A stretch of DNA of 64,000 nt from Candidatus Omnitrophota bacterium (GCA_029261035.1 JAJDCD010000005.1:27516-91515), one strand, 5' to 3'; counted from the first letter of the stretch, positions 993-43,572 are shown. Translations and numbers: made by a program. Notes: generated by a model from the sequence alone, not told the origin.

Positions 993-1020
993 TGGATCCC
1001 GGATCAAGTCCGGGATGACA
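993..1020 (+). repeat. REP-like palindromic element, copy 1 (ctggatcccgga-tcaag-tccgggatgaca).
   Basis: The consensus CTGGATCCCCGA-N5-9-TCGGGGATGACA is shared with four other intergenic copies in the window. Confidence 0.7.
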
Positions 1021-1083
1021 ATGTTTTTTTAAAGGCAAGGGATGCTTTTCCTATCTGCTCCGCGCTAAACGCTATCCGCTAAT

Positions 1084-1707
1084 CTATACTGCGGTTTTAA
1101 CTTTTCCGCCGTAGCCGATTAGGCATTTGGCGATGACGACACCGACGACAAACATGATGGCTACCATAATCCAACTGAAAGATGGGAAGTGGCTTGCTGC
1201 TCCCATGCAGAAAAGCATTGGAATAGAAAAAATGGTATTTACTTTAGAAGCAAAAGCTGCTTTCTTTGCTAAGCCAGCCATTTCTTCTGGAGCTTCTCCG
1301 GCTTTGATCCAGTTAATAATTTTCTTTTGAGCTGGCCAGATAATGAACCAAACATTAAACCACATGATGGTTCCTAAGAGTCCACCTAAGCTGATCCAAT
1401 AGCCCCAAGTAGAATTGAAAAGTCCACCAACACCATTAAGGCCAGCATCTGTAGCGATAAAAATTTTCCATATAACATATCCGAGACCGGATAACCAAGT
1501 GACCATAGCGCCCCAACGAAACCACCATAAGGCTCTTGGCATTAGCTCTGGTACGACCTTTTTCTTTGCGTCTGCATCTAGAGTTTTAGCGAAATGAACA
1601 TTGATGAAATTAAAAAAGTAAAGAAGTCCAATCCATGTGATTCCAGCAATGTAATGAATCCAACGGAATATAAATAATGTAATCGTGTTTGAATCTAATG
1701 TTTCCAT
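1084..1707 (-). CDS. Hypothetical integral membrane protein (Trp-rich, ~5 TM segments).
   Basis: This is the only long minus-strand ORF (207 aa) with hydrophobic TM-like segments. A divergent promoter region is shared with otsA. No confident family assignment is made. Confidence 0.55.
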   Translation of the reverse strand: METLDSNTITLFIFRWIHYIAGITWIGLLYFFNFINVHFAKTLDADAKKKVVPELMPRALWWFRWGAMVTWLSGLGYVIWKIFIATDAGLNGVGGLFNSTWGYWISLGGLLGTIMWFNVWFIIWPAQKKIINWIKAGEAPEEMAGLAKKAAFASKVNTIFSIPMLFCMGAASHFPSFSWIMVAIMFVVGVVIAKCLIGYGGKVKTAV

Positions 1708-1864
1708 AATTCCTCCTTGTTAAGTATCGAAAACTGACAGTATAATAGCAGAATTTCGCTGAGGACGGAAGTTAGAAAGCGAATGACAGATTTTCCCTTC
1801 TCCAACTTCTAAATGAGTGTCCACAGGGGACAGTCAACTAAAGGGATAGTCCCCTTGAGGGTTG

Positions 1865-1873
1865 TGCTAAAAT
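1865..1873 (+). promoter_or_regulatory. Extended -10 promoter candidate (TGcTAAAAT) for otsA.
   Basis: A TGnTAAAAT match lies ~28 nt upstream of the ATG. A GGGAGG SD is at 1886-1891. Confidence 0.4.
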
Positions 1874-1901
1874 AGAGGGCTTAATTGGGAGGCTTTATAT
1901 T

Positions 1902-3383
1902 ATGTGGGACAAAACACAGCTAAAAGAGACTATTCAAACGCAGATGGGTGACTATAAGCTCATTATTGCTTCAAATCGCCAGCCTTACAGTCATATTAAA
2001 AAAGGAAGTGAGATCATATGTCAGCGTCAGCCAGGAGGTTTAGTTACTGCTTTGACCCCTGTTATGGAGACTGTTAATGGGACTTGGATTGGAACAGGAA
2101 CCAGCCCTTACGATAAAGAAGTTGTAGACTCTGATAATAAAATTCAGCTTCCTCCGGATAACCCCTCCTTTTCTCTTAAGCGCATTTTTTTATCTAAGCA
2201 AGAGATGGATGGTTTTTATTACGGCTATTCCAATGAAGGTATGTGGCCGTTGTCGCATATCGCTTATGAGCGTCCTACATTTACCGCAGAGGATTGGGAA
2301 TATTATCAAAAAGTAAATAAGAGGTATGCCGAAGCTATTTTGGAAGAAGTGGGAAAAGAGAAAGCTTTTGTTTGGATACAAGATTTCCACTTGATGTTGG
2401 TGGCTAAGTATTTAAGAGAATCAGATAATCCTAACATCATCACATCTTTGTTTTGGCATATCCCATGGCCTAATCCGGAAGTGTTTGGTATTTGCCCTCA
2501 AAAAAATGAATTATTGGAAGGGTTGCTCGCGCATGATTTATTGGGGTTTCAGGTTAAATCGCATTGTGATAATTTTTTTCAGTCTGTAGAGTCTTCGTTA
2601 GAAAGTCGTATTGATAGAGAACAAAATGTGGTAACGCATACGAAGCGTGAAACTATTGTGAAGCCGTTTCCGATTTCAATTGATTTCGAACAAATATCTA
2701 AAGAAGCAGAAAGTAAAGATATTGAAGAAAGAATGGAGCAGTTAAGAGAAGAGTATAATTTAAAAGGGAAAAAAGTTATCTTCGGAATCGATCGTATTGA
2801 TTACACCAAAGGTATTCCAGATAAATTAAGAGCGATTGATCGGTTTATTGAAAAACGTCCAGAATATAGAGAGAAGTTTGTATTTATACAATTAGGTCAG
2901 GTCAGTCGTATCCAAGTGCCCCGATATAAGGCGTTAAACGATGAGATAAACTCGTTGGTTGTGGATATTAATTGGAAACACTCTCAAGGGTCTTGGGCCC
3001 CTATTGTTTTTACGAGTGAATATGTTCAATATCAAGATATTCTAGCTTTGTATCGCCTTGCAGATATTTGTATTGTGAGTTCCCTGCATGATGGAATGAA
3101 CCTTGTAGCCAAGGAGTATGTGGCAACACGGTCTGATTTAGATGGCGTATTGCTTTTATCCCAATTTACGGGAGCCGCTAGAGAGCTTAGTGATGCGATC
3201 ATTATTAACCCTTATGATCCAGAATCTTTTGCAGGTGCTATTGCTCAGGGGTTGGCGATGCTTCCGGAAGAGAAAGAAAAAAGAATGAAAAAAATGAGAG
3301 ATATTGTTGAGAATAACAATATTTATCGATGGGCAGGCCGAGTTTTGTCAAAGTTATTAAACCTTGAATTTGATGAAGAGTAA
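1902..3383 (+). CDS. otsA: Trehalose-6-phosphate synthase (GT20 family).
   Basis: The WIQDFHLMLV motif matches the OtsA signature (cf. xHDYHLxL). Other matches are GGLVTAL and WPLFHY-like blocks. The 493-aa length is typical. Confidence 0.88.
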   Translation: MWDKTQLKETIQTQMGDYKLIIASNRQPYSHIKKGSEIICQRQPGGLVTALTPVMETVNGTWIGTGTSPYDKEVVDSDNKIQLPPDNPSFSLKRIFLSKQEMDGFYYGYSNEGMWPLSHIAYERPTFTAEDWEYYQKVNKRYAEAILEEVGKEKAFVWIQDFHLMLVAKYLRESDNPNIITSLFWHIPWPNPEVFGICPQKNELLEGLLAHDLLGFQVKSHCDNFFQSVESSLESRIDREQNVVTHTKRETIVKPFPISIDFEQISKEAESKDIEERMEQLREEYNLKGKKVIFGIDRIDYTKGIPDKLRAIDRFIEKRPEYREKFVFIQLGQVSRIQVPRYKALNDEINSLVVDINWKHSQGSWAPIVFTSEYVQYQDILALYRLADICIVSSLHDGMNLVAKEYVATRSDLDGVLLLSQFTGAARELSDAIIINPYDPESFAGAIAQGLAMLPEEKEKRMKKMRDIVENNNIYRWAGRVLSKLLNLEFDEE

Positions 3384-4179: not shown

Positions 4180-4384
4180 TAAAGAACGTTCTTCAATAGA
4201 AACTAAAGACTTAAAACATCAAAAGCTTTTAAGTATTTAACCTCTTTAAACATTTCCGTATCTCTATTAATAGCAATAAGTTAAATTCTTTTAATGCTCT
4301 TTTCCTCCTGCAATTCGCAATCCTCTGAACTTCGTGTTACTCTTTTATAAAGTCCAAAAATGGTATGGGGGCTCTCTGTATGAC

Positions 4385-4397
4385 TAGCTAGGCAGCA
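4385..4397 (+). promoter_or_regulatory. Conserved 13-mer CTAGCTAGGCAGC ~20 nt upstream of the giant-gene start codon. It is palindrome-containing (AGCTAGCT) and is a possible operator or leader motif.
   Basis: An identical 13-mer sits at 18602-18614, in the same position relative to the start of the 3765-aa paralog. Confidence 0.45.
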
Positions 4398-4415
4398 GGC
4401 TTATGGAGACGTTTA

Positions 4416-7400
4416 ATGAGATATGAAAAATACCATTCAACTCAAAAGCTCTTTTCAGTTCACTCTTTAGGTGAAAAAGTTGGAAGTAGTTTTTTAATTA
4501 TTTTCTTCTTGCTGAGCACTCTTTTTGTTTCTCCTGAATCTCTTTTAGCAGAAACAGTTACCCATCAAAAACCTTCAGTATATTCTATTTCTCAAGTAAA
4601 TCAAATTCATATTCCAAAAGAGTTTGGTATCGTTGAAGAAGTTTATCATTCATCTTCTCCAGCTAAAAACAATCCTATGATTGTTTATTTACAAGATGCT
4701 CACTGTATCTATGAGGCCCAATCAAATATTCGAAAAATAATAGACACTCTTCAAAAGAAAAATGGATTACGGCTTATTGCTTTGGAAGGCGGTGAGGGAG
4801 GATTGGACACAGACCTTTTTCGATCTTTTCCTGTTCAAGCAGTAAAAGAGAAAGTGATCGATGATTATGTTCGGAGGGGGGAATTGTCAGGAGCGGAGTA
4901 TGCAGCAATTGTAAATGAAAAGTCTTCGGATTATTGGGGCATTGAGGACATGGTTGTTTATTACGAAAATAAAAATGCTTTTCTAGAATCAATTGACGAT
5001 AAAAAACGAATCGATCTAAAATTAGATGATTTAGATCGTTGGTTAAAAAAGAAAAAAGATGAAATCTATAGTAATCCCCTTAAAGATAATTTTAAAGAGT
5101 ATGAAGCATACGAGAAAGAATATATTACATTACTCGATTACTTAAACTATTTAAAAGAGCAATGGATACAAGCGGGTAAATCGCTGACGGAATTTGCAAG
5201 TATCCAGACGTTGTTGGAAGCGATTAATCGAGAGAAGCAAATGGACTTCACTCAAGTTCAAAGTGAGGCGGTTAGGCTAGAAAAAGTTTTAGAACGACGC
5301 TATAAAAGTGAAATACGTTCTGGTTCAACGACGTCTAAAGTAAGCTTTCAAGATTTAGAAGCTCGAAGGTCCCTGTTTGGAGAAGGTAAGTCTCAAAAAG
5401 ATCAATTTTACCCTTGGATTTGGGCGCGTGTTATAGAAGAGGATTTAGTTGCAGAAGATAGCTCTAATGATAGTTACCCCCATTTTCTTTCCTATATTAA
5501 ACACTTACAGGAACTGGAAAATATAAAAGGCGAAAGTCTCTTTAATGAATTAGAGAAAATGAACCAAGGAATAAAAGATTCTTTATTTCAAAATGAAGAA
5601 CAAAGAACCTTGGATCAGCTTTTTTATAACTTAAAGATACTCCGTAATCTTTCTAAGTTAGAACTCACTCGAGAAGAGCTGGAGTATTATCATAAGAATC
5701 GTGAGAGTTTGTCAGAGAAGAGTTTTTGGGATTTTATGGGAAGAGAATTGGGTCGGTTAGAATTGGATGATTTGTTCAAATCTCATGAACGTTTTTATGA
5801 AGCGGCAATCAAAAGAGATCGTATTTTGTATCAAAACCTTATGGATTTGTTGAAAGAAAAGAAACAAGATTTTGCGATGGTGGTTACGGGAGGGTTTCAT
5901 ACGGATGGTATTAAGGAACGCCTTAAAGCCAAAGGTTTTTCTTATATGGTTGTAACACCGCGCATCACCCAATTTGACGAAGAAACTCCGTATTGGGATG
6001 TGATGCAAGGAAATGTTTCTTATGCGAAGTATAAAAAGACATTTACTTTAGCGCCAGAGTTAGCATTGCAGGTTTATAACGAAGCTATTGAAGCCGCGAT
6101 TGTGGATTCCTTTGTTAGCGCAATAGAAGCAGATTTGCCTGAAGTTTTAAATTCATGGAGAGATAATGTCTTAACACAAGATTTAGATAGAGAAGTTGCA
6201 GCACAATACACAACAACGATTGATCGTTTGATTGACAGGCTTGTTTTAGGGTTAGAACAAACTCAAATTAACCCAGAGCTTATTCAAGGTGTGTCGGAAA
6301 CTCTCCGGCTTTATTTGCAAGGTGAACGAGATGCCGTTGTCCAAAAAGTGGATCAGCTTCAAGCAAGAATTTTACAGCTCCAAACTCAAAAAGTGGTTTC
6401 AAAAGCAGCGGTCAGTGCTGAGCTGGGTTCTTCATTTCCCGAATTTGCGTTACAAGAAGGAGTTTTTCAAGCTAGTTCTTTGGGAGCAATCGTTACAATT
6501 TCTGAAGCAAATCTATCTTCTTTTAATCGACTCCTAGACTTCGTTGATGCAGAAAGCATTAGGGATTTTTTAATTAATACAATTAGTTCTGTTGATGTAG
6601 AGTCTCAATTAGAGATGCTTGAACGGCTGTTGACACGTAATTCGGGTGAAAATGTCAAAATCGGTATTCCGATGACTCTCGCTGTAGAGCAGATGGTGGC
6701 TGTATATCAATTAAAAATAGGGGATGACTTAGGGGGTAAACGAAATCGGGATTTGGTTAAAATATCAAAATTGGAAATGGCAAAGAATTTATTGAAACAA
6801 ATTAAACAAACAAAAGATAGTGGAAAACCTCTTTCTGCAGAGGGTCTTGAGTTAATGACAGGACTCTTTAATATGCTTCAACCGATGTTCGATCGAACCG
6901 GGGCAAATTTAGAGTCAATGACCAATGTTTTGATTCGTAGAGATGATAGCGGAGTAGCTCCATTTCTGTCAGATAATGAGGCTGTGTTCATTATTGATCA
7001 TATTTATCCAATCAGTTTTATCAATAAAAAGGACCCAACATATTTACTTGGGGATGCTTTAATTGCAGCGCAAAAAGCTGCGTTGATAGGACTTAAAAAC
7101 CGGTATCAGTATGAAGTGGATGTCTCTTCGAAGCGAGGTGTTGTTTTTGGGATTCAGCAAGCACTTCTAGAACAATTTCATACAGACTACTTGGCTTTAG
7201 TTCAAGAAAACTTGAACAAAACAGCAGAAACTAATTCGAAATTAAAGGTGATATTAGATCAAAACCCTTCTCTCCTTAGTGATAGAGAGCTTTTTGGAGA
7301 GGGGAAAATTCGTGCAAAATACGCTTATAAAACGGGAGCTCAGATTAATGAATTGATTCCTACGTTAGGTCTTGGAATTCAATCTCTTCAGGAGCTGGGC

Positions 7401-10400
7401 AACGATAAAGCGTCAGAAAATATAGCAAATAAAATATCTAAATTGATTGTTCCTGAGTTGGAAGATATCGTTGAAGAAGTGAAATTGAGTCAATTGAAAA
7501 GCTTAAATATCTTGAATCAGAATTTTTATAATTTGGGTCGTATTCCATCCGATGTGCGATTTAATGCTTATAATCGTCGTGGTCCCCCTCGAGTGAATGA
7601 TTTTAGTGGTTTGTGGAGTAACGCAAATCTTCCAGGTATTGATATCGTAGTAGGTGAGCTATTAGAACAGCTTAAGAAAGATAAAGTTGATGACAAAATA
7701 GAGCCACTCCTTCCAGAGATTACAGATTACCTAATTCGATTATTGGAAGAAGCACTTGCTTTTACAGAACGGAACCCCCGACATCACCTCTTATTTAATG
7801 AATTATTTTTTACATCTCAAGTTCGAGAATTGCTTCAAAGAGAATTTAATCCTAATGCGCTAGAAGAAATGCAGGTGGCATTAGGGGGTAATCGATTACC
7901 TGAAAGGTTAAATCATAAAACGTTTACGAAGGGAGATGAGCACTTTACTCTTTTTAGAGATCAATCTGGAAAAGTGAACTATTTGTTTGTGGACTTTGAT
8001 AATTTTCAAGTGCTTGATTTATTACAACGTCAGCTAAATGTGCTTCCTAATGATGATGGTACTTTTTTTGATTTGCACGCACAAGTTGATTTGGCCTTGG
8101 AAGCGTTGATCGCGAGTAAAGAAGAGATCACCTCTCAGGATTTACAAGAAATGTTAGATCGAATTTTAGATCAAGTTGAAGTGGTTCTAGATTTATCCGA
8201 CGAAGAAACTCAAAAATATCTAGAACGCCATAATATGGACCCAGAGACTTTTGAAAAGTATGGAGAAATTTATAACGACAAAGAAGGTGTTTTTGTGAGT
8301 GTACCGGTTAGAAGAGTGAGTGTGGATACTAAAACAAAATATGAGGACAAACGTCGCCTCACAGGTAAGATCGGAAATATTGGGTTTAGTTCTTCTTTAA
8401 CTTCTGAATTAAATTTATCTAGAGAAGATTCCTTAGAAACGCTTTACAATAAACTGGAATCCATCTTAGGTTCTGGAGGTGTTGCTGTCGATATGCTCAA
8501 AGGGTTGAATAGAAGAGGGGAGAATGTGGAGCTTAACTCCACAGAGTATGGGCAAATATGGGGGGATTTCTTTAAAAAAGAAGCTTTGGAGAAAGTGAAT
8601 AAAAAAAACATATTGAGAGAATTAAATTCCACAGAGTTGCAAAATATGGATGAAGAGGGAAAGGGGATTGCTGTACAGCTCATATTAAACTTAAAAGAAG
8701 AGGTTCATGAAAATCGAGTGTATGTGATTGGTGAATTGGCTGATTTAGCGCTTCAATATGGGATAGAGTTTGCAGTGGTAGAAGGTTTTGTGAAGATGAT
8801 GGATGGTTTAGAGTTAGAACAACCGGATATTATTTCAGCTCAATCGTTAGGAAATGCTCAAATTTCAGAATTATTGATTCAAGACCTGGTTCAAGGGAAT
8901 TCTCCAGAAGAAATTAGAGATTACTTAAAAACGGAAGATGTCGAAGAGCAAATTCGGGGTATTGGAAGTTTGCTTGCAGGAGCTAATATCCGATCCTTTC
9001 AACGAGAGCAGCCAGGACAGTTTCAAGAACTTTTTACGGAGCTCGATGTGGAGTCGAGGCAAAGGGTTATTAATGCAGCTGTTAAAATAGCTACGGTTAA
9101 GAAAAAGCTAGCTAATTTTCTTCAGATTCAAAATCCAAACAACTTAAATTCATTGATTCAACGTTTTAGAAATTTAAAAGTTGATGAAGATCCAGGTGTC
9201 ATTATGTTGCGTTTCTTATCCGAAGAAGGGCGTAGAGAAGAATTTAAATCTAGAATGACTCAATTGCAGTTTAGAAATGATCTGAGGGATTATGTTCGAG
9301 AAGTAGTTGCAGAATTACCCGCCAAAGTTATTCCTATTAATCGAACTCAAGCAAAGCCTCATGTGGAAAATCAGATTCCTTTTGATTTAAGAAGAGAAGA
9401 TGCTCTCCTTTTTAAGGATATGGCAGAACTGCTACGGAATCAAAATCAGACAGATACAGCGCCTATTCTCCGATTGAGAGGAAAAGTTCGTTATGCGGGA
9501 AGAAATCTTGTTGGAGCGGGAACAACGCCTACTGAAAGAGGTATTCGTGCATTGACAGAACAGTATGGGCTAGAGGCTCCTACGAGTGACATTCAAACAA
9601 CGACCGAAGAATTATTAAGAAAGATGAAGCAGCGTTATGTTCATTTACTTGGAGCTCAAGTTGCTTTGGGAATCCAAAATTCTGATGAACTTACTCAATT
9701 TTTAGAGCGTATATCTCAGCAGGAAATCCCTATACTGACAGGAATAGAAGGGTTTGATTTATTAGAGGAGTTGATTGATGATCAGAAACTTAAAGAAATT
9801 GCTCCTGGTGTCAGTCATTCCTTTTTGGTTAATCAAAGAGGAAAAAGAAGTCTGGCTGTCCTTCGTCCTAATGAAATTATGTTTTTTAAACAATTTACAT
9901 CGGTAAAGGAAAGGGTAGAAGCGCAGTTAATGGGTAAACGATTAGAGCGAGAGATTTCTCTTTCAAAACTATACCCACAAAGTGGTGTTACTGAGCGTAT
10001 TTTGGATTTAGCGCAAAAGAATAGAGAGGGAGAACGTATTTTAGGTCTGGTTAAGCATTTTAAGAGACGTTACCCATCTCAAAATGAAAGAGATCGTTGG
10101 CTCACTGCTGCTTCTGAATTAGGTGTGAACCGAGTCTATAAGCGAGAGGTTTCAAAGCGAAGTCGAGATGTGGAGCAAGCACGAAAAAGGCTCAATGAAA
10201 TAAGTTCTAAAATAGCACGAAGAAAGAATTCAATTTTTTCTCGTTTTTTTAATATTGAAGCCTTAGAAAGCCAAAGAGAGCAATTAAGAAGAACATATCA
10301 AGCAGCTTTAGAAGAAAAGTCTTCATTTAAAGAAAAGTGGAGTTTGAATCCAGAAACAGGTAAATATCAATTAGCTCCTTCATCCAATATCTCTTTTTCC

Positions 10401-15400: not shown

Positions 15401-15775
15401 TGGAAAATGAATTTGAGTTCTGCAAATTCTGGATCAGCTACGGATATTGCTTTTGTTTCAGATTTTGATTTATTAGAGCGTTTACAAGAAAATAGGATTC
15501 ATTCTGTAGCTCTGGACCGTGTTTTTCAGGAACAAAGAAAAGAACTGTTAGATATTTCAAATATTCATGGGGCAGAGAGGCATGCTGCGATAGGGACCTT
15601 ATTTAACCTTTCTTGGCAGCTGTTGAGCCAAGAAACCGTAGATGGCTTGTCTTATCGATTAGAGAGAGACGGAAACACGGGTATCTATGTAGCTCGACTT
15701 GAGTTTTTAAGGGAAGCTATTCAAGATTGGCTTTCTGATTTTCAATCAAAACAACTTATTGAACAAGCTGCGTAG
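12431..15775 (+). CDS. Large secreted protein (1114 aa), related to the giant family only through SxxSLG motifs and the -AA terminus. It lacks the N-terminal family domain.
   Basis: It has a TTG start (in the ORF track) and a signal-peptide-like N-terminus (LILSSLVLQLVLSPSLSFSQ). There is an internal duplication (TTLRIDFELLNY ~13030 versus RTLKIDFEIFNN ~14265). Motifs are SAASLG, YKASLG and EASSLG. It ends ...IEQAA. Confidence 0.75.
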   Translation: MKINIFQKLILSSLVLQLVLSPSLSFSQNSVEVSSFVDQQTQTIQKYSKDQVRQKTVMNLSSEDAKNEITQEAARLLNQKRVPLSRITTLLSRARPMSAASLGEKVPQYLTRSFLVSPSKEALENSSYKDQLVVRLGDDDKISFGDNLPTDITDQRRKLMVDVRSIKNKLVTYFPQLKDIAWEFVFYPDEPVVLVEGDSETTLRIDFELLNYINLLVVAITDLTLSYELRGYDNSALVKIFSVSRAVNILMNIDKKEIDWLVARVDGSRKSVYGEILKSFAGKGTNSWVKDNSQKSELIRRLVELIPVNKEELREVLTQLRNDQLVAMAKMVFTLSIVFESWSEERDLNLTRLLKIKPVGLYNKIEQVNDYHAALKMIEQFESKVENGTLMYEDLKSSSEERKTLMETVFILMVRERKFDLLIAVFNVYVNSNMNPNLLLTPLFNTLYASQRHYGAWISSRQLAEALAYVVQNTENDIVSESIKKFPSVPWLKMSKENRISVGKWLEHYLNGSEDKGGEIFLSKFMPAVSQVEFDDDLVFASNRGASDKYGRLSLEEYSMLSDSVQRKKKYVALAEVEKEIGGNREKIFNRTGKTFLRNPPFPIQLVDDGHLRTLKIDFEIFNNRTAVYKASLGEIRDEFYLQNAPQSFALKKLFALVNFLDVLVGASVEEKKFVTQRAIQSQRYSLAAFLSHFEQEGYEREPWGNKKWRKNIFEILKESFPELNESIESLELLDSDVLRQQLSDLENERKTEKLWEHLAELLFEDILHSGQFFRVFDEIVSGLVYLKQSSQSDRLEQFLTLLLQTHNGRDKLFEAVHKTLKEDESRPSLDEKDVAEILLVLEKLLKSSLERGVRFRAHPETKVKYGLTKEIFQKIKRHYEEGRTVVEASSLGKSYFDPATLNDRHQMLVIDLNSFSLTPYFSKQLIRFLEESKNKQIQLLVSRFPQIAELKKEFKALGIQDRELKQIQFIVNPLISSGHMSELSESLEKWKMNLSSANSGSATDIAFVSDFDLLERLQENRIHSVALDRVFQEQRKELLDISNIHGAERHAAIGTLFNLSWQLLSQETVDGLSYRLERDGNTGIYVARLEFLREAIQDWLSDFQSKQLIEQAA

Positions 15776-18392: not shown

Positions 18393-18397
18393 AGCGC

Positions 18398-29977: not shown

Positions 29978-30010
29978 TGTCATCCCCGAATGTATGAGTC
30001 GGGGATCCAG
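29978..30010 (-). repeat. REP-like palindromic element, copy 2 (tgtcatccccga-atgtatgag-tcggggatccag), in inverted orientation.
   Basis: It is the same family as the 993-1020 copy. Confidence 0.7.
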
Positions 30011-30152
30011 ATTTGATAAAGGGATAGTAAGGAGACTCTAAGGTCTTATGGGTTTCCGACTAAAGATTTCGGGAACGACAATTATCTTTTTATTCTTTAA
30101 ATAAATTCGTGAATATGGGCATAGATGGTTTAATAAAAGGGGCGATAAAGCA

Positions 30153-34527: not shown

Positions 34528-37500
34528 ATGGGGATCAATATAAAAGGCTTATACCAAAAGCTAATAGCAGTTTTGGTTGTAGTCTCCTTTCTTTTTTCTG
34601 ACATTTCATTATGGGCACAGTCTGCGTCTGCTCAGATCCAAAGTTTACCAAAATCAACAAATGCTATGAGTAAAGGGGTTCGTATCCCGGATACTTTAGG
34701 AAGTATTCAAGATGTTCATTGGTCTGAGGGAAGTGAACGTTTTGTTGTTTTGATTCAAGATGCTCATGCCATTCAAGATGCTCAATCGAATATTCAACAG
34801 CTCATTCATTATTTTCAAGAGAACTATGGAATTGATATGGTTGCGTTTGAGGGGGCGCAAGGTACATTAGATAATCGTTTAATTAAAACATTCCCAGACT
34901 CTGAAATTGTCAGTAAGGTTATGAATCAATATTTGAAAAATGCCGAAATTACCGGAGTTGAAATGGCATCTTTGTCTGATGGAGGTTTTGTCCAATATGT
35001 GGGTATCGAAGACTGGGAATTGTATGAACAAAATTTCTTTTCTTATGTTCATGCATTAAAAAATCAAAAACGCATTCAAAATGAGCTTAATGTTTGGAAG
35101 CAGGCTTTAGACTCCAAAAGAAAAACGCTGTATTCTGAAGATATGAATCGTTTTCATAATATGATTTATGGATTTTATGAGCAAAAGATTGATTTACTTG
35201 ATCTTTTGAAATATTTAAAAGAGATTCCTTCAGTTCAAAATACTTTGACCACTTATACCTACCTTAATAGTTTGATTAAACTAATGGACGAAAATGAAAT
35301 TGTTAACAATGAAGAAATTCGTTCAGAAATTTTAAGTGTTTCTAACCATTTTTATAAAAGTCATTTCTCTAAGCTAGAAAAAAAAGATCAAAAAGAATTA
35401 AATCAAAAACTCCAGGCCCTGAATACAAGTTCACTTGCTCCTGGTGTTTTTTTGAAATGGCTTTCAGACCTTAAAGACCACTATAGGATACCTGTTGAGT
35501 TTTCTTCTACATTAATCAAAACAATTAAGGTTATGGAACGTTTTGATGTGATGAGAGGGAGCGAAGTTTTTGATGAGCTTAATCAGGTTATTTTAGCAAT
35601 TGAAAAGGAATTAGCTCTTAGTAGTGATGAACAGGAAATGGCTGCTTTGTATCGAAAAACTCGTTTCTTAGATAGTTGGGTTCGTTTGGAAATAACCAAA
35701 GACGAGTGGATGAAATTTGCAGATCAAAGGGAGGGGTATCAACAGTTACTAGAGGCGCTAGGGTTAGAAGAAGCTTTTGAAACCATGTTAGATTTTTACC
35801 AATTGGCGTTACTTAGAGATGATATTCTTTTTCAAAATTTAGTTAAACAAATGAGGAAAGCGGATAAAAATAAATCGATGCTACTTCTAGGGGGTTTTCA
35901 TGCCCAAGGAATAAAACAACAACTCAAAGATTCGGGTTATTCTTATGTGAGTATCATGCCTCGAATTAATGACCTTGAAGGTAAGGATGTTTATCATAAA
36001 GTGATGCGTGGACATTTATCGTATCAAGAACATATTTCAACAACAATTCAAGACGCATTCTTAAAAGATGTGGCTATTCAACTTACAAATCATTTAAATC
36101 CTTCAGAATATCTTTCTAAGTTAAAGCAATGGAGAGATGAGGTGATTCGTTCTCTAGCGAACGAAGGAAAAGTTTCTAAGGCGAAACAGTACACACGTTA
36201 TATTGATCCTTTGTTTAAAAATTATTATGATTTATCACAGCAAGATCAGAAATCGAACTTAAATAAGGAACAAATACTTTCAGAAGTTCAAAAAGTGTTT
36301 CAGAAGACGCAAGAAGAAACAGCCCATACTTTATGGAGCCGTTTCGAGAGCCAATTAAAGTCCTTTGAATTGGGTTTGAACCAGCTTGAAAGAAAAGATA
36401 GAAATGATCCTATGCAAATACAAAATTTAATGGAAACGATTAATGCCTTAGAGCCGGCCGCTTTGGTTCAGTTAGCTCACCCGTTAAACCCAGATCCTTC
36501 TGGAAGTAGTAATGGGTTAAAAAGTTACTTTAAAGGCGATCGTTTAGATTTGAGTATTTCGGCAAAATCTTTAGGTGCTGAAGAAGTAGAGTTTGGAGAA
36601 ATTTTGGAAGGTTTTATGCAGTTGGATGAGCTTATGGGAACGGCGACTGTTGATCAATTGACGAACCCAAGATTTAGAAGAGAAGTGGAGCAGTTATTAG
36701 AAAGTGAATCTGGGTATTTTGGAAAAATTATGGATATGATGACAGATAATAATACGGCATTTCCCGTTTTAATGGAACGAGCTCAAGATATGTTGTTTGA
36801 CCCCACACGAGAAGAAGGTATTCGTATGGGTATGGTTTCAGTTCCTCTTGCTGTTGCCAATAATATTGGTAAAGAATATGGAATCCCAGGCTTTCCAGAT
36901 ATTTTAAAAGGGAAAATTAACTCCGCAATTCAAACAGTAATGTCGTCCTTTAGTGCTATGGTGCAAAGTCCTAATCGGCCTAGAAGCGCTTATTTGGGAG
37001 GGCGTATTATTTTATTGGATGTTCCTGAACGTCATGAGTTTGCTGTTTCTCTTCGACTGGTTATTGACCAAGTTATCCTAGAGCTTAAAGAAGAGTATGG
37101 AGAGGACTTAAGACAGGTTGGAAACTCGGAGGCTCAAATTCAGCAGTTTAAAACATCTTTGGATGATTTGCCTTTTTACGGCTCTCATGCACGCGTGTAT
37201 ATGCCTAACATTATGCCTAACCAAGCAAGTCGAGATCCTCAATTTTCGGTAAAAAATGTCATGAGGACTATCAGAAGAGAAGAAGGGCGACTTCTACCAG
37301 AGCTTTTGGATGAAGGTTCAGATTTGGTTGATCAAATGGCGGAGTATATTGCGAAAGATCGGTTTTTGAGTTTTCGTCGAAATAAATTAGCTCGTGCCGC
37401 TACTTTTTGGACAGAAGAAGAAGACTTTGCACGAATTGAAGGTTATGAAGAGATTGACGAAGAGGGTCCTGAGCCTGGTGCTCGTCGATTTGCGAGTGAC

Positions 37501-40500
37501 TTTTTGGAACTATTGTTGGTGGACGCAATCAATAAATTAAATGAACGATTAGAGACCTTGGAGAATGTAAATATTCCAGGGTTGAGAAAAATTATTGATC
37601 AATGGGTTTATGCACAGCCGAATCAAACTAAACCCCTTTCTCCAGAGCAGTTGCAAGCGGTTAAAAAGAAACAAGTGGGAGTGTTGGGGGATAATCAGAT
37701 ACAAAGTATTAAACGTTCTATAACAGCTAAGCATAAAAGACAAGATTGGTTGGCGGAGCTTTTTAATCATTTTCAACAAGGAAGAAGTAAAACGATACCC
37801 CCTTATAATTTTCATTCTGAAAAACTGCCCCGAGTGGTGGACTTTCTCGAACATATTTACAGTAGTGATTTATCAAATTCTTCATATGCATTAAAGTTAA
37901 AGAATGCACTATCTGCTTTTAGTAAAAAACCAAATGAAAAAAATTTAAAATTTGTACAGCGTGCTTATCGCCGTTATCGATTGATGATGGAGGAGGGACT
38001 TGTTCTTGCTTATAGGGACCATCGATTGCAAGAGGCTTACAAGCTATTTTCTGTCAGTGAAGTTGTGAAAGCTGACAAAAAGGGATTGCTAAAAAAATGG
38101 AAAAAACATGTTTTAAGTCGACATCAGGGAGACAATGGATGGAGTGATTCTCAAAGAGAGTTGCTCGATAATGAAAGTTTGAGATTTGATCGACTAATGA
38201 ATTTGGTGACGCCTGGCTTTTTTATGTTTAAGCGTCCCGTGGGTGATGAGATTGGTTTTCTAGTTTTTGATGATGCGTCCGGATTATATAAAATGGGTTT
38301 TGCAGAGTTTAATAAAGGGAATGCTTTTTTTCAGGAAAACACGCCTGATCCCACGGATTCTGTTTACCATTCCATATTGTTGGATTTGTTGAATTCTGCT
38401 TTGGGGTATTCGAGTTCTGGAGAAGCTCAAGAGTCTCCATGGAAAGGACTGGGATTTTTTGAAAATTTAAATGATACGATGTTAACTTCCATTCAACGTT
38501 TAGCCGATGAAAAAAAGAGAGAAACTCTTGCTCGTCCTTATCCGACATCGGAGAAGGTTTATGATGAGCGTGAAAGAACGATTTTACGTATGCCTACCTA
38601 TATTCGAATAGATGAGGATTCTTCACCTCGTTATCCGCATTATGCGAAAAGTCCTAGTGGGGATGTGTACTACCGAGGGCGCCTAGGAGATGAGTGGAAG
38701 AAACAAAGTCATGTTCAAATACGCCCTAACGATAGGCTGTGGAGGCGATTTACAACGCAGTTGTCAGCAGCTAGAACTATTCGTGAAAAGTTGGTTGATC
38801 CAGATTTGGATGACATACAGCTTTTGTTTGATGATTTGGATGATTTTAATGGAATGCAAAAAAAAGACATTGAGCGTATAGGAAAAGTGGTAACGGATAC
38901 TGAGATAAGAACAGCATTTCCGGAAAAGGATAAAAAAAGAACTCGTGTGATTCAAAAAAGAAGAAAGACAGATGTTGATGTAGAAGGTCAATCTCTTGGG
39001 GTTTTGGATGTGGAAGAGTTGGAATATGAATTGAATGAAAAAGTGAGGGATGCTAAATCTATCTTGAACGACTATGCTCGAATTCATTTTGATATTAAGG
39101 ATGCTGTTTCTGAAGAAGATTATCAGAAAAAATGGATTGTTTTATTTAAGCAATGGTATTACCAACAATTAGATAAAGATCCTACTCGGAAACGCACTCC
39201 TAAAATAGCGTATGTTATTGACGAGCGTCATTTTAATACCTCTATTGCATTAATTCCTGGATTTCCTATTGAAGACTCTGAAGTGGAAGAATTGCAGAGC
39301 TTTGTTTCTGGATTAGCAAATGGAAGCATTGAGGAGGTGATTGGTTTTGAATTTGTTTTTGGGCAAAGGACAGATGCTTTTAGTGCTTTTCGTGATCGCC
39401 TTCAAAATTTGAAAGAATATTTAAGGGAAAAGACGGTTGTTAACTCAGAGCCTCTTTATTGGTTTGGAACAAGCTATTTATTAGAAATGTTAAGAGGGGG
39501 GTCTCTTAAGCTAAATCCTGAACTTTTAGATGTAGAGTTTCAAGACGATTCTGGTAGCCTTGCTAAATCAGAAACCTCAATTCCTGTAATGACAGCCACA
39601 GTAACTCCTGATGGAACGCCTGTGCTATTTAAAACTTATGAGACAGATCGTTTTATTACTGATATTGGACGAGATGGGCAAGAGAGAAAAATTGTTGATG
39701 TGGGTGTTCCAGGTTTTGTGGCTGCGATTCAGCCAGATGGAAAGGTAGATGCTATTCCTACATTGAAGTTACCTCATACAATGAAAGAAGAAGGGCTTTA
39801 TGTTTCGAAAACTCGAGAGGATGCCGCAGGAGATCGTTTGAGCAGAAGAGAAGGTATGGGCTATTTAAAATTGAAACAGCCTGCTGTTTATCAAAACACC
39901 TTAGATACATGGGCAGGCCGCATAGGAAGTGGGGAAGATTATTTTTATAATAACCCTGTTACCGAGCTTAGTGACTTATCTATTTTAACTCGAGCAAATA
40001 ATGGGCCTTTGGGCGTTGTGATAGGGGTTCAGAAAAGATTTTTTGAACGTTTTAATGTGCATAGAGAAGATGATGGAAGGCTTATTCAGTTAGATGAAAA
40101 AAATAGTTTGTCTCCTGTTACGACGATAGCAAATGCGTTCATCGGTGACATTAGTTTTTTCTCAAGAAGAGATTATGATTTTTTTATGCAAATAGCTTCT
40201 TTGTTTGATATCGAAATGCCTAAAGGGGTAACCATTCGTGTTCAAGATGGCGATGTTGTTACAGAACTTTCTTCGAGTAATGGAGCATCTTTGGGGGCGA
40301 TAACATCATATCCCTTTGATGTTACGAAATGGCATGATGAGTTGTATAAAGACTTGCGTAGTGAGCTTTACTTTCTAAGTGTTTATGATTTGCCTCAGTT
40401 TAATATACAGAGAGCTTCTTCTTTGGAAGAGTATAAAAAACAGTGGTTTCAACAATTTAAAACCTGGTATTACGAAAAGTTAAGAGATAAAGATTTAATT

Positions 40501-42351
40501 GCGCCCATTGAAGAATTAGGATTTGATGTCCCTTTGTTGCTTAGACTTATTGATTCACGAAGCCCAAATTATAGTATTGTTTATGATTCTGCATTTCCAA
40601 TTACTACTAATGATTTAAAAGCTGTTGAAGAGGTTGTTCGTCAAGTTCAAGAAAATCGAGATCTGGCTTTTGCTATAGAGGACTTGCTCAATTATGATAG
40701 AAGTGAAGGTGACCTTGTTTCGATTGTAGTACAAAAGGGAAGTCTTCTTAATGAAATTAATAGAATTAGATCTACAGATGAAGTTGATGCTGTTTTTTGG
40801 CAAGGAACAAGTTACTTTTTAGAGATTTTACAATCGAGAGGTCTAGTTCAGCAGGGGATAGGTAGAAGTATGACCGATCAAGTGATTGAAGGAGTATATG
40901 TTGAAATAGCTCCGGAAAAAGCAGCTAGTTGGAGATTGCATGAAGAACAAGGTGTTGGGTATTTAAAGATTTTTGAGCCAGAGCAATTTAAAAAAGCAAA
41001 AGCTGCTGCGGATAAAGATAGAGATGAAGGTTTTGGGCGTTCTTTTTACTTGCCATCTGTCACTTCTGCTGATGACTTATCTCCCACGACGATAGAGAAT
41101 CAGGGTGCTTTGGGTGTGGTTATTGGTTTGAGAAAGTCTTTTTTTCAGAGAGGTTGGCAAGGAGATCGAGGGCAATTGTTTGATGGAGCCAAACCAGTTA
41201 CGGATATACCTATAGAAGCTATTTCAGAGGTAATTTTTTATTCGGATAAAGACTATGAAACATTTCAGAGAGTATTGAAGCAACAGCGTGTTGTGATTCC
41301 GCCATCCGTAAAACAGCGTATTTCTAGAAATGGAGTATTAGAAGATCTTACTGTTGCAACGGCTGCAAGTTTAGGGAGTGGAGTTCAATTACGTTTAATA
41401 GATTTTTCTGGTACGGATATTTCGCAATTAGAAAAAGAAGGACAGGCTCGTTTAGATCAAATTAATGGTGTGCTGGGGCAGGCATTTTTTGGGTTGCAAA
41501 GAGATTTAGAAACGTTACCATCGGGTCAAGCTGTTGTGAACCGTATTTTTGAAGAAGATTATTTAAGGGGAATTACGAGTGTTTTAGGCGATTTAAATCA
41601 GATTGTGGATGCAACTTTTCTCTTGGATCAATTGAAAGGTGCTGTAGCGCGTCTTATTGTTATTCCGAATGCATTAGCTTCTGCTGTGGATTCAACAGTG
41701 ACTCCTTTATCTGATGAAGCTAGGGTTATTCTTCAAAATCCAGAATTATTTAACGAGTTGTACCAGAGCCAAAAAGGAAATGCTCTCTTTGCAGATCCTA
41801 CCAATGTCAATTGGAGTCAATCGTATATTTTAGATGCGTCGTTTTTTCCAAGAGTGGATGACCCTCGTAGAGAACGGGCTGAGTTGTTTGTGCAACAGTT
41901 AATTGCTTCAGGCATCCGAATTGCTGTGCCATATAAGGTGGGGAGCCCGGAAGAAAAGTTTGCATTAGAACTTAGAAAATTGATTCCTGAAGTTATGCTT
42001 GTAGGATATAACGATCGTCCGTTGGGGCAGCGAAAATTTAGAAGTTTAAAGCAGCCGATGGTCATTCTTCCAATGGGTATATCTGTGAAGTTGAATCGTA
42101 GAAGTGATTGGAAAGATAAGGGGGTTGTTGCAGATCCTCAAGCAACCTATCCTTCAATGATGAATTTGGCTGATTTTGTTTCCTTGATTAAAATTGTTTT
42201 GCACTCGGACGCGCTAAAATCGCAGTTAAAGATTGATGATGAAACCCCATTTCCACAGGTCACGATGGAATTTTTAAACTCTCTTGTTAATTTAATAAAT
42301 GACCTCGCTAAAACGAAAAAAGCCCAACAGCTGATAGCAAGAGCTGCGTAA
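34528..42351 (+). CDS. Giant secreted protein (2607 aa) with the N-terminal family domain and a ~400-aa internal tandem duplication.
   Basis: A signal peptide is present. The N-domain motifs are LIQDAHA, AFEGAQG, FYQLALLRDDIL, LLLGGFHAQGI and MPRIN (34680-36030). The tandem repeats are at ~39115-40300 and ~40429-41380 (DYQKKWIVLFKQWYYQQL / EYKKQWFQQFKTWYYEKL; WFGTSYLLEML / WQGTSYFLEIL). Each repeat ends in ASLG. The protein ends ARAA. Confidence 0.85.
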   Translation: MGINIKGLYQKLIAVLVVVSFLFSDISLWAQSASAQIQSLPKSTNAMSKGVRIPDTLGSIQDVHWSEGSERFVVLIQDAHAIQDAQSNIQQLIHYFQENYGIDMVAFEGAQGTLDNRLIKTFPDSEIVSKVMNQYLKNAEITGVEMASLSDGGFVQYVGIEDWELYEQNFFSYVHALKNQKRIQNELNVWKQALDSKRKTLYSEDMNRFHNMIYGFYEQKIDLLDLLKYLKEIPSVQNTLTTYTYLNSLIKLMDENEIVNNEEIRSEILSVSNHFYKSHFSKLEKKDQKELNQKLQALNTSSLAPGVFLKWLSDLKDHYRIPVEFSSTLIKTIKVMERFDVMRGSEVFDELNQVILAIEKELALSSDEQEMAALYRKTRFLDSWVRLEITKDEWMKFADQREGYQQLLEALGLEEAFETMLDFYQLALLRDDILFQNLVKQMRKADKNKSMLLLGGFHAQGIKQQLKDSGYSYVSIMPRINDLEGKDVYHKVMRGHLSYQEHISTTIQDAFLKDVAIQLTNHLNPSEYLSKLKQWRDEVIRSLANEGKVSKAKQYTRYIDPLFKNYYDLSQQDQKSNLNKEQILSEVQKVFQKTQEETAHTLWSRFESQLKSFELGLNQLERKDRNDPMQIQNLMETINALEPAALVQLAHPLNPDPSGSSNGLKSYFKGDRLDLSISAKSLGAEEVEFGEILEGFMQLDELMGTATVDQLTNPRFRREVEQLLESESGYFGKIMDMMTDNNTAFPVLMERAQDMLFDPTREEGIRMGMVSVPLAVANNIGKEYGIPGFPDILKGKINSAIQTVMSSFSAMVQSPNRPRSAYLGGRIILLDVPERHEFAVSLRLVIDQVILELKEEYGEDLRQVGNSEAQIQQFKTSLDDLPFYGSHARVYMPNIMPNQASRDPQFSVKNVMRTIRREEGRLLPELLDEGSDLVDQMAEYIAKDRFLSFRRNKLARAATFWTEEEDFARIEGYEEIDEEGPEPGARRFASDFLELLLVDAINKLNERLETLENVNIPGLRKIIDQWVYAQPNQTKPLSPEQLQAVKKKQVGVLGDNQIQSIKRSITAKHKRQDWLAELFNHFQQGRSKTIPPYNFHSEKLPRVVDFLEHIYSSDLSNSSYALKLKNALSAFSKKPNEKNLKFVQRAYRRYRLMMEEGLVLAYRDHRLQEAYKLFSVSEVVKADKKGLLKKWKKHVLSRHQGDNGWSDSQRELLDNESLRFDRLMNLVTPGFFMFKRPVGDEIGFLVFDDASGLYKMGFAEFNKGNAFFQENTPDPTDSVYHSILLDLLNSALGYSSSGEAQESPWKGLGFFENLNDTMLTSIQRLADEKKRETLARPYPTSEKVYDERERTILRMPTYIRIDEDSSPRYPHYAKSPSGDVYYRGRLGDEWKKQSHVQIRPNDRLWRRFTTQLSAARTIREKLVDPDLDDIQLLFDDLDDFNGMQKKDIERIGKVVTDTEIRTAFPEKDKKRTRVIQKRRKTDVDVEGQSLGVLDVEELEYELNEKVRDAKSILNDYARIHFDIKDAVSEEDYQKKWIVLFKQWYYQQLDKDPTRKRTPKIAYVIDERHFNTSIALIPGFPIEDSEVEELQSFVSGLANGSIEEVIGFEFVFGQRTDAFSAFRDRLQNLKEYLREKTVVNSEPLYWFGTSYLLEMLRGGSLKLNPELLDVEFQDDSGSLAKSETSIPVMTATVTPDGTPVLFKTYETDRFITDIGRDGQERKIVDVGVPGFVAAIQPDGKVDAIPTLKLPHTMKEEGLYVSKTREDAAGDRLSRREGMGYLKLKQPAVYQNTLDTWAGRIGSGEDYFYNNPVTELSDLSILTRANNGPLGVVIGVQKRFFERFNVHREDDGRLIQLDEKNSLSPVTTIANAFIGDISFFSRRDYDFFMQIASLFDIEMPKGVTIRVQDGDVVTELSSSNGASLGAITSYPFDVTKWHDELYKDLRSELYFLSVYDLPQFNIQRASSLEEYKKQWFQQFKTWYYEKLRDKDLIAPIEELGFDVPLLLRLIDSRSPNYSIVYDSAFPITTNDLKAVEEVVRQVQENRDLAFAIEDLLNYDRSEGDLVSIVVQKGSLLNEINRIRSTDEVDAVFWQGTSYFLEILQSRGLVQQGIGRSMTDQVIEGVYVEIAPEKAASWRLHEEQGVGYLKIFEPEQFKKAKAAADKDRDEGFGRSFYLPSVTSADDLSPTTIENQGALGVVIGLRKSFFQRGWQGDRGQLFDGAKPVTDIPIEAISEVIFYSDKDYETFQRVLKQQRVVIPPSVKQRISRNGVLEDLTVATAASLGSGVQLRLIDFSGTDISQLEKEGQARLDQINGVLGQAFFGLQRDLETLPSGQAVVNRIFEEDYLRGITSVLGDLNQIVDATFLLDQLKGAVARLIVIPNALASAVDSTVTPLSDEARVILQNPELFNELYQSQKGNALFADPTNVNWSQSYILDASFFPRVDDPRRERAELFVQQLIASGIRIAVPYKVGSPEEKFALELRKLIPEVMLVGYNDRPLGQRKFRSLKQPMVILPMGISVKLNRRSDWKDKGVVADPQATYPSMMNLADFVSLIKIVLHSDALKSQLKIDDETPFPQVTMEFLNSLVNLINDLAKTKKAQQLIARAA

Positions 42352-42352
42352 T

Positions 42353-42381
42353 TGTCATCCCGGCCTTGAGCCGGGATCCAG
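42353..42381 (-). repeat. REP-like palindromic element, copy 3 (tgtcatcccggc-cttga-gccgggatccag). It begins 2 nt after the stop of the 2607-aa gene.
   Basis: It is the same family. It forms an inverted pair (BIME-like) with copy 4 across a 45-nt spacer. Confidence 0.7.
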
Positions 42382-42426
42382 TGTCTTTGTGGTTTTTATT
42401 TTTAAAATGAACTCCTATGATTTTAC

Positions 42427-42454
42427 TGGATCCCCGATCGAGTCGGGGATGACA
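42427..42454 (+). repeat. REP-like palindromic element, copy 4 (ctggatccccga-tcgag-tcggggatgaca).
   Basis: It is the same family. It sits in inverted orientation relative to copy 3. Confidence 0.7.
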
Positions 42455-42506
42455 GAGGTTTTCTGTTTCCGTTTTTCTATCCGCTCTACGCTCCGTGCTA
42501 CTAACA

Positions 42507-42515
42507 TGGTATAAT
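42507..42515 (+). promoter_or_regulatory. Extended -10 promoter (TGgTATAAT) for aguB.
   Basis: This is a perfect TGnTATAAT. An AAGGAG SD lies 16 nt downstream. Confidence 0.5.
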
Positions 42516-42535
42516 TACATTACTTAACAAAAGGA

Positions 42536-43426
42536 GTGGTTGTGGCTGCTAAAAAAAGTAAGAAAGTAATGGTTGCGTTAGTTCAAATGCGATGTGGAGC
42601 TAAGCCAGAAGCTAATTTGGCTAAAGTGGTTTCAGCTATTGGACAAGCGGTTAAGAAAGGTGCAAAGATTATTTGTTTGCAGGAGCTTTTTAAGACCTCC
42701 TACTTTTGTCAAACAGAGGATACAAAAAACTTTAAATTAGCAGAGAAAATTCCTGGGCCTACCACAGATGTCCTTCAGCAAATAGCCAAAACACGTAAAG
42801 TTGTGATTGTGGCTTCTCTTTTTGAAAAGCGAACTCAAGGTGTGTTTCATAATACAGCTGTTGTCATTGATGCAGATGGATCGATTGCAGGGAAGTATCG
42901 TAAGATGCATATTCCTGATGACCCTCACTTTTATGAAAAATTTTATTTTACTCCCGGTGATTTAGGTTTTAAAACAGTCAAAACTAAATATGCAGACATT
43001 GGTGTATGTATTTGTTGGGACCAATGGTTTCCAGAAGCGGCACGACTAACGGCACTTTCAGGAGCTCAGATTTTATTTTATCCGACTGCGATTGGATGGC
43101 TTTCGAGTGAAAAGCCTTCGTCCTGTGTTGCTCAACATTCTGCTTGGGAAACAATTCAACGTTCTCATGCGATTGCTAATGGTGTTTTTGTTGCGGCGGT
43201 TAATCGAGTTGGCGTTGAAAAAGATATTACGTTTTGGGGTCAGTCCTTTGTTGCGGACCCTTCAGGGAAAGTAATTACGCGAGCAAGTACAAAAAAAGAA
43301 GAAATTCTTTATGTTGAATGTAATTTGTCTAAGATAGATGAACAACGTCAAAGTTGGCCCTTTTTAAGAGATCGAAGAATAGATGCTTATGATGCGCTCT
43401 TAAAACGTGTCGACGATGAAGGGTAA
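42536..43426 (+). CDS. aguB: N-carbamoylputrescine amidase (nitrilase/CN-hydrolase superfamily).
   Basis: Matches are VALVQM..., the catalytic E (CLQELF), K (YRKMHIP) and C (ICWDQWFPE), and the 296-aa length. The true start may be the GTG at 42542 or the ATG at 42569; the GTG at 42536 abuts the SD. Confidence 0.85.
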   Translation: MVVAAKKSKKVMVALVQMRCGAKPEANLAKVVSAIGQAVKKGAKIICLQELFKTSYFCQTEDTKNFKLAEKIPGPTTDVLQQIAKTRKVVIVASLFEKRTQGVFHNTAVVIDADGSIAGKYRKMHIPDDPHFYEKFYFTPGDLGFKTVKTKYADIGVCICWDQWFPEAARLTALSGAQILFYPTAIGWLSSEKPSSCVAQHSAWETIQRSHAIANGVFVAAVNRVGVEKDITFWGQSFVADPSGKVITRASTKKEEILYVECNLSKIDEQRQSWPFLRDRRIDAYDALLKRVDDEG

Positions 43427-43539
43427 GGACCCTTTTTATTTTTCAAAAGATTACAGAATAATTAGATAAAGTGTCATTCCCGAAACTTTTAGTGTGGAAT
43501 CCATAATACTTACGTATTACGTACTTTAGGCAAAAAGAA

Positions 43540-43572
43540 CTGGATCCCCGACAGAAACATTCGGGGATGACA
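43540..43572 (+). repeat. REP-like palindromic element, copy 5 (ctggatccccga-cagaaacat-tcggggatgaca).
   Basis: It is the same family. Confidence 0.7.

Follow-up and report, generated by a model that had tools for sequence, protein, structure and literature searches.

Palindromic intergenic repeats in a Candidatus Omnitrophota contig are probably hairpins of the type recognised by Ssn-family GIY-YIG nucleases

The hairpin family and its copies in the window

The closest described relatives of the repeats reported here come from Neisseria. The Neisseria Transformation Sequence (NTS), CGTCATTCCCGCGMAVGCGGGAATCYRG, contains dRS3, and the Ssn-related motif (SRM) is its generalisation (Chenal et al., Nat Commun 2025, PMC11893778). 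In the same study SsnA, a single-domain GIY-YIG nuclease of ~95 aa (cd10448), binds the hairpin and cuts nearby, in single-stranded DNA (ssDNA) only and on the forward strand only; the GTC before the palindrome is most critical for cleavage and the C after it for binding. DNA that carries the NTS transforms less efficiently in the presence of SsnA, and the enzyme does not act on RNA (PMC11893778). The main text of that paper makes no mention of Patescibacteria, Omnitrophota, Nitrospirota or doublets of hairpins. Here we analyse a family of intergenic palindromic repeats in a stretch of 64,000 nt from a Candidatus Omnitrophota bacterium (GCA_029261035.1, JAJDCD010000005.1:27516-91515), the whole of which we call the window. 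We put the probability at roughly 0.75 that these repeats are NTS/SRM-type hairpins, recognised by an Ssn-family GIY-YIG nuclease.

A first-pass annotation had proposed a family of five palindromic intergenic repeats with asymmetric flanks. Two 12-mers, each made up of flank plus stem, were used to locate copies and recover all five, all of them intergenic; three of the coordinate pairs proposed earlier were exact, whilst two starts were off by one (992 and not 993, 42426 and not 42427). Two further decayed copies bring the number in the window to seven, in four intergenic gaps. We refer to the strand reading TGTCAT-stem-loop-stem-ATCCAG as the NTS strand, the opposite strand reading CTGG...GACA. 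On the NTS strand the window motif is TGTCATCCCCGA-loop-TCGGGGATCCAG, and the window contains three occurrences of the full hairpin pattern ATCCCCGA-N3-12-TCGGGGAT, where 100 dinucleotide shuffles give an expectation of 0.00. The G+C content of the window is only 37.7%, so the GC-rich hairpins are conspicuous.

The first site is a singleton at 992-1020 (- strand), TGTCAT-CCCGGA-CTTGA-TCCGGG-ATCCAG followed by TGTCTTTGT, which lies between two convergent genes and on the + strand reads CTGGATCCCGGA-tcaag-TCCGGGATGACA. The second site, doublet A, opens with a clean hairpin at 29978-30010 (+ strand), TGTCAT-CCCCGA-ATGTATGAG-TCGGGG-ATCCAG, with a 9-nt loop and 46 nt past the stop of an open reading frame (ORF) of 3765 aa. 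Its right member at 30048-30080 (- strand), TGTCGT-TCCCGA-AATCTTTAG-TCGGAA-ACCCAT, stands across a 37-nt spacer and is degenerate. Doublet B consists of two clean hairpins separated by 44 nt. The left one, at 42353-42381 (+ strand), reads TGTCAT-CCCGGC-CTTGA-GCCGGG-ATCCAG followed by TGTCTTTGT, has a compensated stem and is parted from the TAA of a 2607-aa ORF by a single base; the right one, at 42426-42454 (- strand), reads TGTCAT-CCCCGA-CTCGA-TCGGGG-ATCCAG and has a 5-nt loop. Lastly, doublet C pairs a decayed left member at 43472-43504 (+ strand), TGTCAT-TCCCGA-AACTTTTAG-TGTGGA-ATCCAT, in which the stem has 2 mismatches, with a clean right hairpin at 43540-43572 (- strand), TGTCAT-CCCCGA-ATGTTTCTG-TCGGGG-ATCCAG, again with a 9-nt loop; the spacer here is 35 nt. 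Two independent Logan assemblies reproduce the region 42159-46691, with three of the copies in it, at 100% identity; the repeats are therefore not an assembly artefact.

All five clean copies have a perfect 8-bp stem preceded by GTCAT and followed by ATCCAG (ATCYRG in degenerate form). The complete TGTCAT flank is found in these five and in the decayed copy at 43472, the other decayed copy (30048) having TGTCGT. It had been suggested that the stems are preserved, and the hairpin is indeed kept in every clean copy; the stems are nonetheless not identical, as two of the five (CCCGGA/TCCGGG and CCCGGC/GCCGGG) vary by paired, compensatory changes. These same two copies, at 992-1020 and 42353-42381, also share an identical 3′ extension, CCAG-TGTCTTTGT, which repeats the TGTC of the 5′ flank. 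When folding energies as ssDNA were compared with those of shuffled sequence, the five clean copies gave -8 to -10.3 kcal/mol with z-scores of -3.6 to -4.3 (-10.3 kcal/mol and z -3.8 for 992-1020), whilst the decayed copies at 30048-30080 and 43472-43504 folded no better than shuffles and had no stable fold. Moreover, the four independent sites are all intergenic, for which p is ~3e-5 given an intergenic fraction of ~7% (~93% coding), a hand estimate from the ORF table of the window.

The likeness to the Neisseria NTS lies in identical flanks (GTCAT...ATC-YRG), a GC-rich stem of 7-8 bp, strand asymmetry and an extragenic, multicopy distribution. The window repeats differ from the NTS in their stem (CCCCGA/TCGGGG against TCCCGCG/CGCGGGA), in their first base (T against C), in their loops (5 or 9 nt against 3-4 nt) and in their host, which is uncultured and probably related to Omnitrophota. 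The published search pattern for SRMs, HGTCWYN(0-2)YYVSBRHN(0-5)WNVSBRGN(0-2)RNCYNB, is matched by two of the five clean copies (992-1020 and 42426-42454), where 0.04 matches are expected (100 shuffles). Likewise, the SRMs of Wolbachia, Rhizorhabdus and other bacteria (PMC11893778) share with the window family the HGTCWY...RNCYNB definition and a distribution over many phyla, whereas the copies with a 9-nt loop and the copy with a GGCC stem fall outside the published pattern.

The motif occurs in many phyla and is tightly linked to ssn in other genomes

A scan for the exact motif CTGGATCCCCGA-N4-12-TCGGGGATGACA, with each species represented by a single genome, found it in at least 120 genome loci (846 kb, 136 exact copies), spread over more than 15 phyla or candidate phyla. 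These include Patescibacteria (the candidate phyla radiation, CPR), Omnitrophota, Nitrospirales, Desulfuromonadales/Geobacter, Legionellaceae, Thiotrichaceae and Iodobacter, together with Caldisericota, Planctomycetales, Elusimicrobiales, Chloroflexota, Rhodothermales, Calditrichaeota and Zixibacteria. One variant of 24 nt, flank plus stem, is exactly conserved across phyla. The motif is far commoner than chance and its copies are intergenic, and so the family set out in the first-pass annotation stands on grounds of both number and placement. The exact motif had 0 matches in 2.9 M viral contigs, an absence that could reflect avoidance or merely host sampling.

The anatomy of the family was derived from the copies in these loci, which comprise the 136 exact copies, 140 distinct stem/loop variants and 261 members. 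Across the distinct variants, stem positions 3, 5, 6 and 8 covary, with non-Watson-Crick combinations below 3% at each; at position 3, for instance, the pair is CG in 89 variants and TA in 47. The T-GTC before the stem and the C after it are nearly invariant. Of these bases GTC and C-YRG were built into the search pattern, so that only the T, present in 238 of the 261 members, counts as an independent observation. Folding indicates that the flanking TG and CA are able to pair, leaving TC and C as an internal loop. The loops had earlier been described as freely differing, a view that has to be given up: amongst the exact copies they fall into two classes that recur across phyla, one of 5 nt (TCRRG) and one of 9 nt (YAAARRCAT), as read on the CTGG strand. 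A weak NGTCTTT extension 3′ of CCAG also recurs across phyla, including many of the Nitrospirales loci.

From these loci and the window we took 4,163 ORFs and searched them with a GIY-YIG pattern and then with a hidden Markov model (HMM). Small GIY-YIG ORFs were found in eight of the loci listed. In six of the loci an ORF of 95-125 aa lies within ~50 nt of the window motif; they belong to Omnitrophota (L007 and L069), Parcubacteria (L044), Uhrbacteria (L074), Thiotrichaceae (L077) and Gammaproteobacteria (L083). In L044, L069, L074 and L077 motif copies flank the gene on both sides, an arrangement that resembles the inverted copies around the ~95-aa GIY-YIG gene of Neisseria. Compared across phyla, the six linked proteins share 55-68% identity. 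GIY-YIG (PF01541) is the sole strong Pfam match for the L077 and L044 proteins (E 1e-16 to 1e-17), and likewise for two more divergent proteins from L056 and L001. Furthermore, the window copy at 43540-43571 is identical over 32 nt, from GTC to CCAG, to the ssn-adjacent copy in L007, a metagenome-assembled genome (MAG) of Omnitrophota.

An unbiased all-against-all clustering of the ORFs in the listed loci (846 kb) placed the GIY-YIG family fourth. The three clusters ahead of it look generic from their representatives (ABC ATPase, response regulator and sensor kinase), which leaves the GIY-YIG family as the sole specific recurrent family. No recurrent transposase family was seen among the clustered ORFs around the 136 copies. 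Other ORFs bounded by copies are ordinary, namely a FAD oxidase, RNase T, a nucleoside deoxyribosyltransferase and a nucleotidyltransferase.

In a tblastn search of a plasmid collection the L083 protein matched a single gene of N. gonorrhoeae (54% identity, E 8e-27). The numbering Y6/Y17/E64 in this gene fits the catalytic residues mutated in PMC11893778 and canonical NTS copies flank it; on these grounds we presume that it is the SsnA ortholog. The L007 protein is 56% identical to it (E 7e-37) and has Y6/Y17/E64 in common with it. PLSDB lists as plasmids two N. gonorrhoeae chromosomes of 2.17 Mb (L123, NZ_CP119142.1; also NZ_CP119140.1), which is how the match arose. In L123 the ssnA-like gene carries no annotation in that table, and its start codon seems to be ATT and not ATG. 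A search of 50,697 phage records gave no Ssn homolog. Among PDB entries there are distant UPF0213 GIY-YIG proteins but no Ssn structure, and NCBIfam has no specific model for the Ssn proteins.

Since a study from 2025 (PMC11893778) already describes both the repeats and the enzyme, the basic finding is not new. What is added here is a wider set of lineages, with a probable Omnitrophota relative in the window and with Patescibacteria/CPR, Nitrospirales, Desulfuromonadales, Caldisericota and others in the related loci. Further additions are the exact cross-phylum variant, the absence of the motif from viral contigs, and the paired hairpins and likely re-reading of a Wolbachia RNA family that are described below.

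Paired hairpins

Three of the four sites in the window are inverted pairs, the fourth being the singleton. The first-pass annotation had recognised one of them, that at 42353-42454, and it is indeed present; with the two decayed copies added there are three. Among the related loci neighbouring elements are mostly arranged tail-to-tail (89 pairs, against 17, 10 and 11 in the other orientations), and their median spacer is 19 nt. Moreover, the two members of a tail-to-tail pair usually carry different stem types, 84 pairs being unlike and only 2 alike, and many of the exact copies have a neighbour of the form TGTCATTCCCGCGAAAGCGGGAATCCAG. A whole doublet can fold in two ways, either as two local hairpins closed by an outer (TGTCAT/ATGACA) and an inner (GGATCCAG/CTGGATCC) helix, or as one imperfect long hairpin.

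The spacers of the three window doublets have no similarity to one another, and no target-site duplication was found around the window pairs. The pair at 42353-42454 points outward, an orientation it shares with the ssn-flanking copies of L044 and L069. Because of this shared orientation the window pairs look like an ssn cassette minus its gene. The same orientation lends something to an earlier alternative, that copies 3 and 4 are the ends of a tiny miniature inverted-repeat transposable element (MITE). We rejected a MITE in the window: the outer ends TGTCAT/ATGACA are inverted, but the target-site duplication is lacking, the spacers are unrelated, and a larger unit bounded by terminal inverted repeats is found in Desulfuromonadaceae only. 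In the MAG loci of that family (L014, L042, L119, L026 and L066) the doublet sits inside a repeated unit of ~165 nt with sharp borders. This unit is MITE-like and has outer terminal inverted repeats, GTAACTATTCAGCA...TGCTGAATAGTTAC; L066 has only its left part.

Similar arrangements are known from other systems. Neisserial intergenic mosaic elements (NIMEs) and Correia-type intergenic mosaics are likewise intergenic, with spacers of ~35-150 bp bounded by dRS3/NTS-type hairpins, whereas the spacers in the window are unique sequences and not repeated RS families. Tandem arrays of hairpin plus spacer, which recall the arrays of Neisseria NIMEs, occur in L015 (2588-2988), L077 (5495-5818), L007 (6687-6945) and L108, with periods of about 124, 146 and 108-119 nt. 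A second parallel is WsnRNA46 (Rfam RF02625), whose consensus, UGUCAUCC...GGAUCCAG - spacer - CUGGAU...GGAUGACA, has the same tail-to-tail doublet and the same flanks, but which is annotated as a Wolbachia small RNA (sRNA) and not as a DNA element. Doublet 42353-42454 scores 26.4 bits against this model, where the gathering score is 65.3, and is therefore not a member. From the shared consensus, WsnRNA46 appears to be a transcribed SRM doublet.

It is possible, although we regard it as doubtful, that the conserved unit is the heterotypic tail-to-tail doublet and not the single hairpin, and that the doublet is a non-autonomous, mobilisable form of the ssn cassette, a GIY-YIG counterpart of the REPINs, paired repetitive extragenic palindromic (REP) elements. 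A typical doublet may then consist of a ATTCCCGC-type hairpin beside a ATCCCCGA-type one with a spacer of ~5-45 nt, and may have been conserved almost without base changes over lineages that range from Patescibacteria and Omnitrophota to Proteobacteria. It may place one Ssn-cleavable site on each DNA strand, and the differing stems may prevent the pair from collapsing into one long hairpin. Were this so, the identity across phyla would imply frequent horizontal spread of ssn-hairpin modules, and WsnRNA46 would be one such doublet.

Proposed recognition by Ssn, competing explanations and genomic setting

If the window repeats are NTS/SRM-type hairpins, their mode of action can be modelled on Neisseria. 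In each copy an 8-bp GC-rich stem would be bracketed by single-stranded flanks of fixed sequence, 5′-(T)GTC on one side and C-CAG-3′ on the other. Only where DNA is single-stranded, for example during replication, transformation uptake, conjugation or repair, would the hairpin form, and it would then be the recognition site of a ~95-aa Ssn-family GIY-YIG endonuclease. As in the Neisseria model, the enzyme would bind the hairpin and, acting only on the TGTCAT strand, would nick the ssDNA a few nt to the 5′ side of the hairpin; in Neisseria such nicking lowers the integration of incoming motif-bearing DNA. The heterotypic tail-to-tail doublets of the window would put one cleavable site on each strand, and may be gene-less derivatives of the insertion sequence (IS)-like hairpin-ssn-hairpin arrangement of other genomes. 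We infer that the window copies are acted on by an Ssn encoded in this genome, because an ssnA homolog is present in 81% of genomes with more than 200 SRMs (PMC11893778) and because two of the ssn-bearing loci, L007 and L069, are from Omnitrophota.

Several observations weigh against this. HMM and tblastn searches of the 64-kb window found no ssn gene and no pseudogene or remnant of one. The 81% figure also means that not all SRM-rich genomes have the enzyme. Three of the five clean copies miss the published SRM pattern, solely through a 9-nt loop or a GGCC stem. The decay of two of the seven window copies is compatible with relics, and the only demonstrated biological role of the system is in naturally competent Neisseria (PMC11893778).

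The main live alternative is that the copies are relics without an enzyme: NTS/SRM by descent, in a genome that lacks Ssn, and now functionless, decaying leftovers that perhaps serve in part as structural spacers. The missing gene and the two degenerate copies that no longer fold speak for this, as does the mutual dissimilarity of the doublet spacers, which gives no sign of recent copying, and ~19% of SRM-rich genomes have no ssnA homolog (PMC11893778). On the other side, the 8-bp stem is perfect and the flanks are invariant in five copies, and in two of these the pairing has been preserved by compensatory changes, which argues for continuing selection on the hairpin. Moreover, over 32 nt one copy does not differ from an ssn-adjacent copy in another Omnitrophota MAG. 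We consider relics improbable, though a good deal less so than any of the explanations that follow.

A role at the level of RNA, in which the hairpins are terminators, stabilisers of the 3′ ends of the giant upstream genes or small RNAs, receives little credence from us. E. coli REP hairpins stabilise mRNA, three of the window sites are placed 1 to 46 nt 3′ of stop codons, and doublet 42353-42454 has its weak resemblance to a transcribed Wolbachia sRNA with the same consensus flanks. A terminator scan of the window, however, called none of the hairpin copies, whose stems have no following T-run. The scan did call a canonical terminator with GC stem and T-run at 43418-43435, just upstream of site 4; a second one at ~907-945, just upstream of site 1, was seen by eye only and is not in the scan list. 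These separate terminators lie upstream of sites 1 and 4, and so it is not the hairpin copies that terminate those genes. The hairpins also occur in both orientations relative to genes that are uniformly on the + strand. An RNA role further leaves unexplained why asymmetric flanks should be conserved across phyla and why a nuclease gene should be adjacent, and SsnA has no action on RNA (PMC11893778). An effect on RNA could be a side effect of the hairpins. In a search of the whole window at gathering thresholds no Rfam family was found, the only sub-threshold matches being to miRNA-like hairpin models and WsnRNA46.

The first-pass annotation had read the repeats as REP elements or bacterial interspersed mosaic elements (BIMEs) and had implied a REP-associated tyrosine transposase (RAYT) as their partner. 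It was right about the form: as with the REP/REPIN/BIME and RAYT systems of E. coli and Pseudomonas, the repeats are extragenic palindromes with asymmetric flanks that make up inverted doublets, and there too a linked single-copy gene is flanked by repeats and a hairpin is recognised in ssDNA. The partner was wrong, for the flanks are those of NTS/SRM, the partner of which is Ssn, a GIY-YIG nuclease and not a Y1 HUH transposase. The window copies have no GTAG-type 5′ tetranucleotide, and the clustering of ORFs around the 136 exact copies yielded the GIY-YIG family in place of any transposase-like one, copy-flanked ORFs being ordinary genes or ssn. In addition, the doublets are heterotypic, pairing two stem types whose halves lack perfect mutual pairing, whereas the halves of a REPIN pair with each other. 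That the repeats are a REP/REPIN system mobilised by a RAYT is therefore very unlikely.

Least credible of all is the notion that a site-specific recombinase, such as one of the Piv/IS110 family, uses the copies for attachment or as targets, as described for filamentous prophages in Neisseria dRS3: the window contains neither a recombinase nor an IS or prophage, and none recurs in the listed loci, the exact motif is absent from the viral contigs, and such use would be a secondary exploitation that does not explain the existence of the repeats. CRISPR (clustered regularly interspaced short palindromic repeats), integron attC and dif-type sites were also rejected on account of the dispersed copies, the wrong spacing and the lack of R″/R′ GTT cores or XerCD half-sites.

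Recognition by an Ssn-family nuclease is the explanation we favour. In annotation, hairpins of this kind should be labelled SRM/NTS-like and not REP, terminator or sRNA. If Ssn-hairpin modules truly restrict or process ssDNA, they would constitute a widespread and little-studied control of DNA exchange in diverse and often tiny genomes, and their natural variants are a possible source of ssDNA-specific nucleases for biotechnology.

The window also contains six very large + strand ORFs of 1,114-3,765 aa (4416-12032, 12431-15775, 18635-29932, 30153-34331, 34528-42351 and 51202-58125), in which Pfam finds almost no domains, the sole matches being HATPase_c, DnaJ and Metallophos. Of the four hairpin sites, three stand directly after or between these ORFs. 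A scan of the window for tRNA genes returned none. Other genes in the window encode OtsA/OtsB, agmatine deiminase, RadC, a ClC channel and a fused HemD-HemE. The last of these, a fusion of uroporphyrinogen-III synthase and decarboxylase of 649 aa (48658-50607), has its nearest named homologs in Omnitrophica/Omnitrophota MAG proteins (52-60% identity), and fusions of this kind are found widely in Omnitrophota and in further uncultured lineages.

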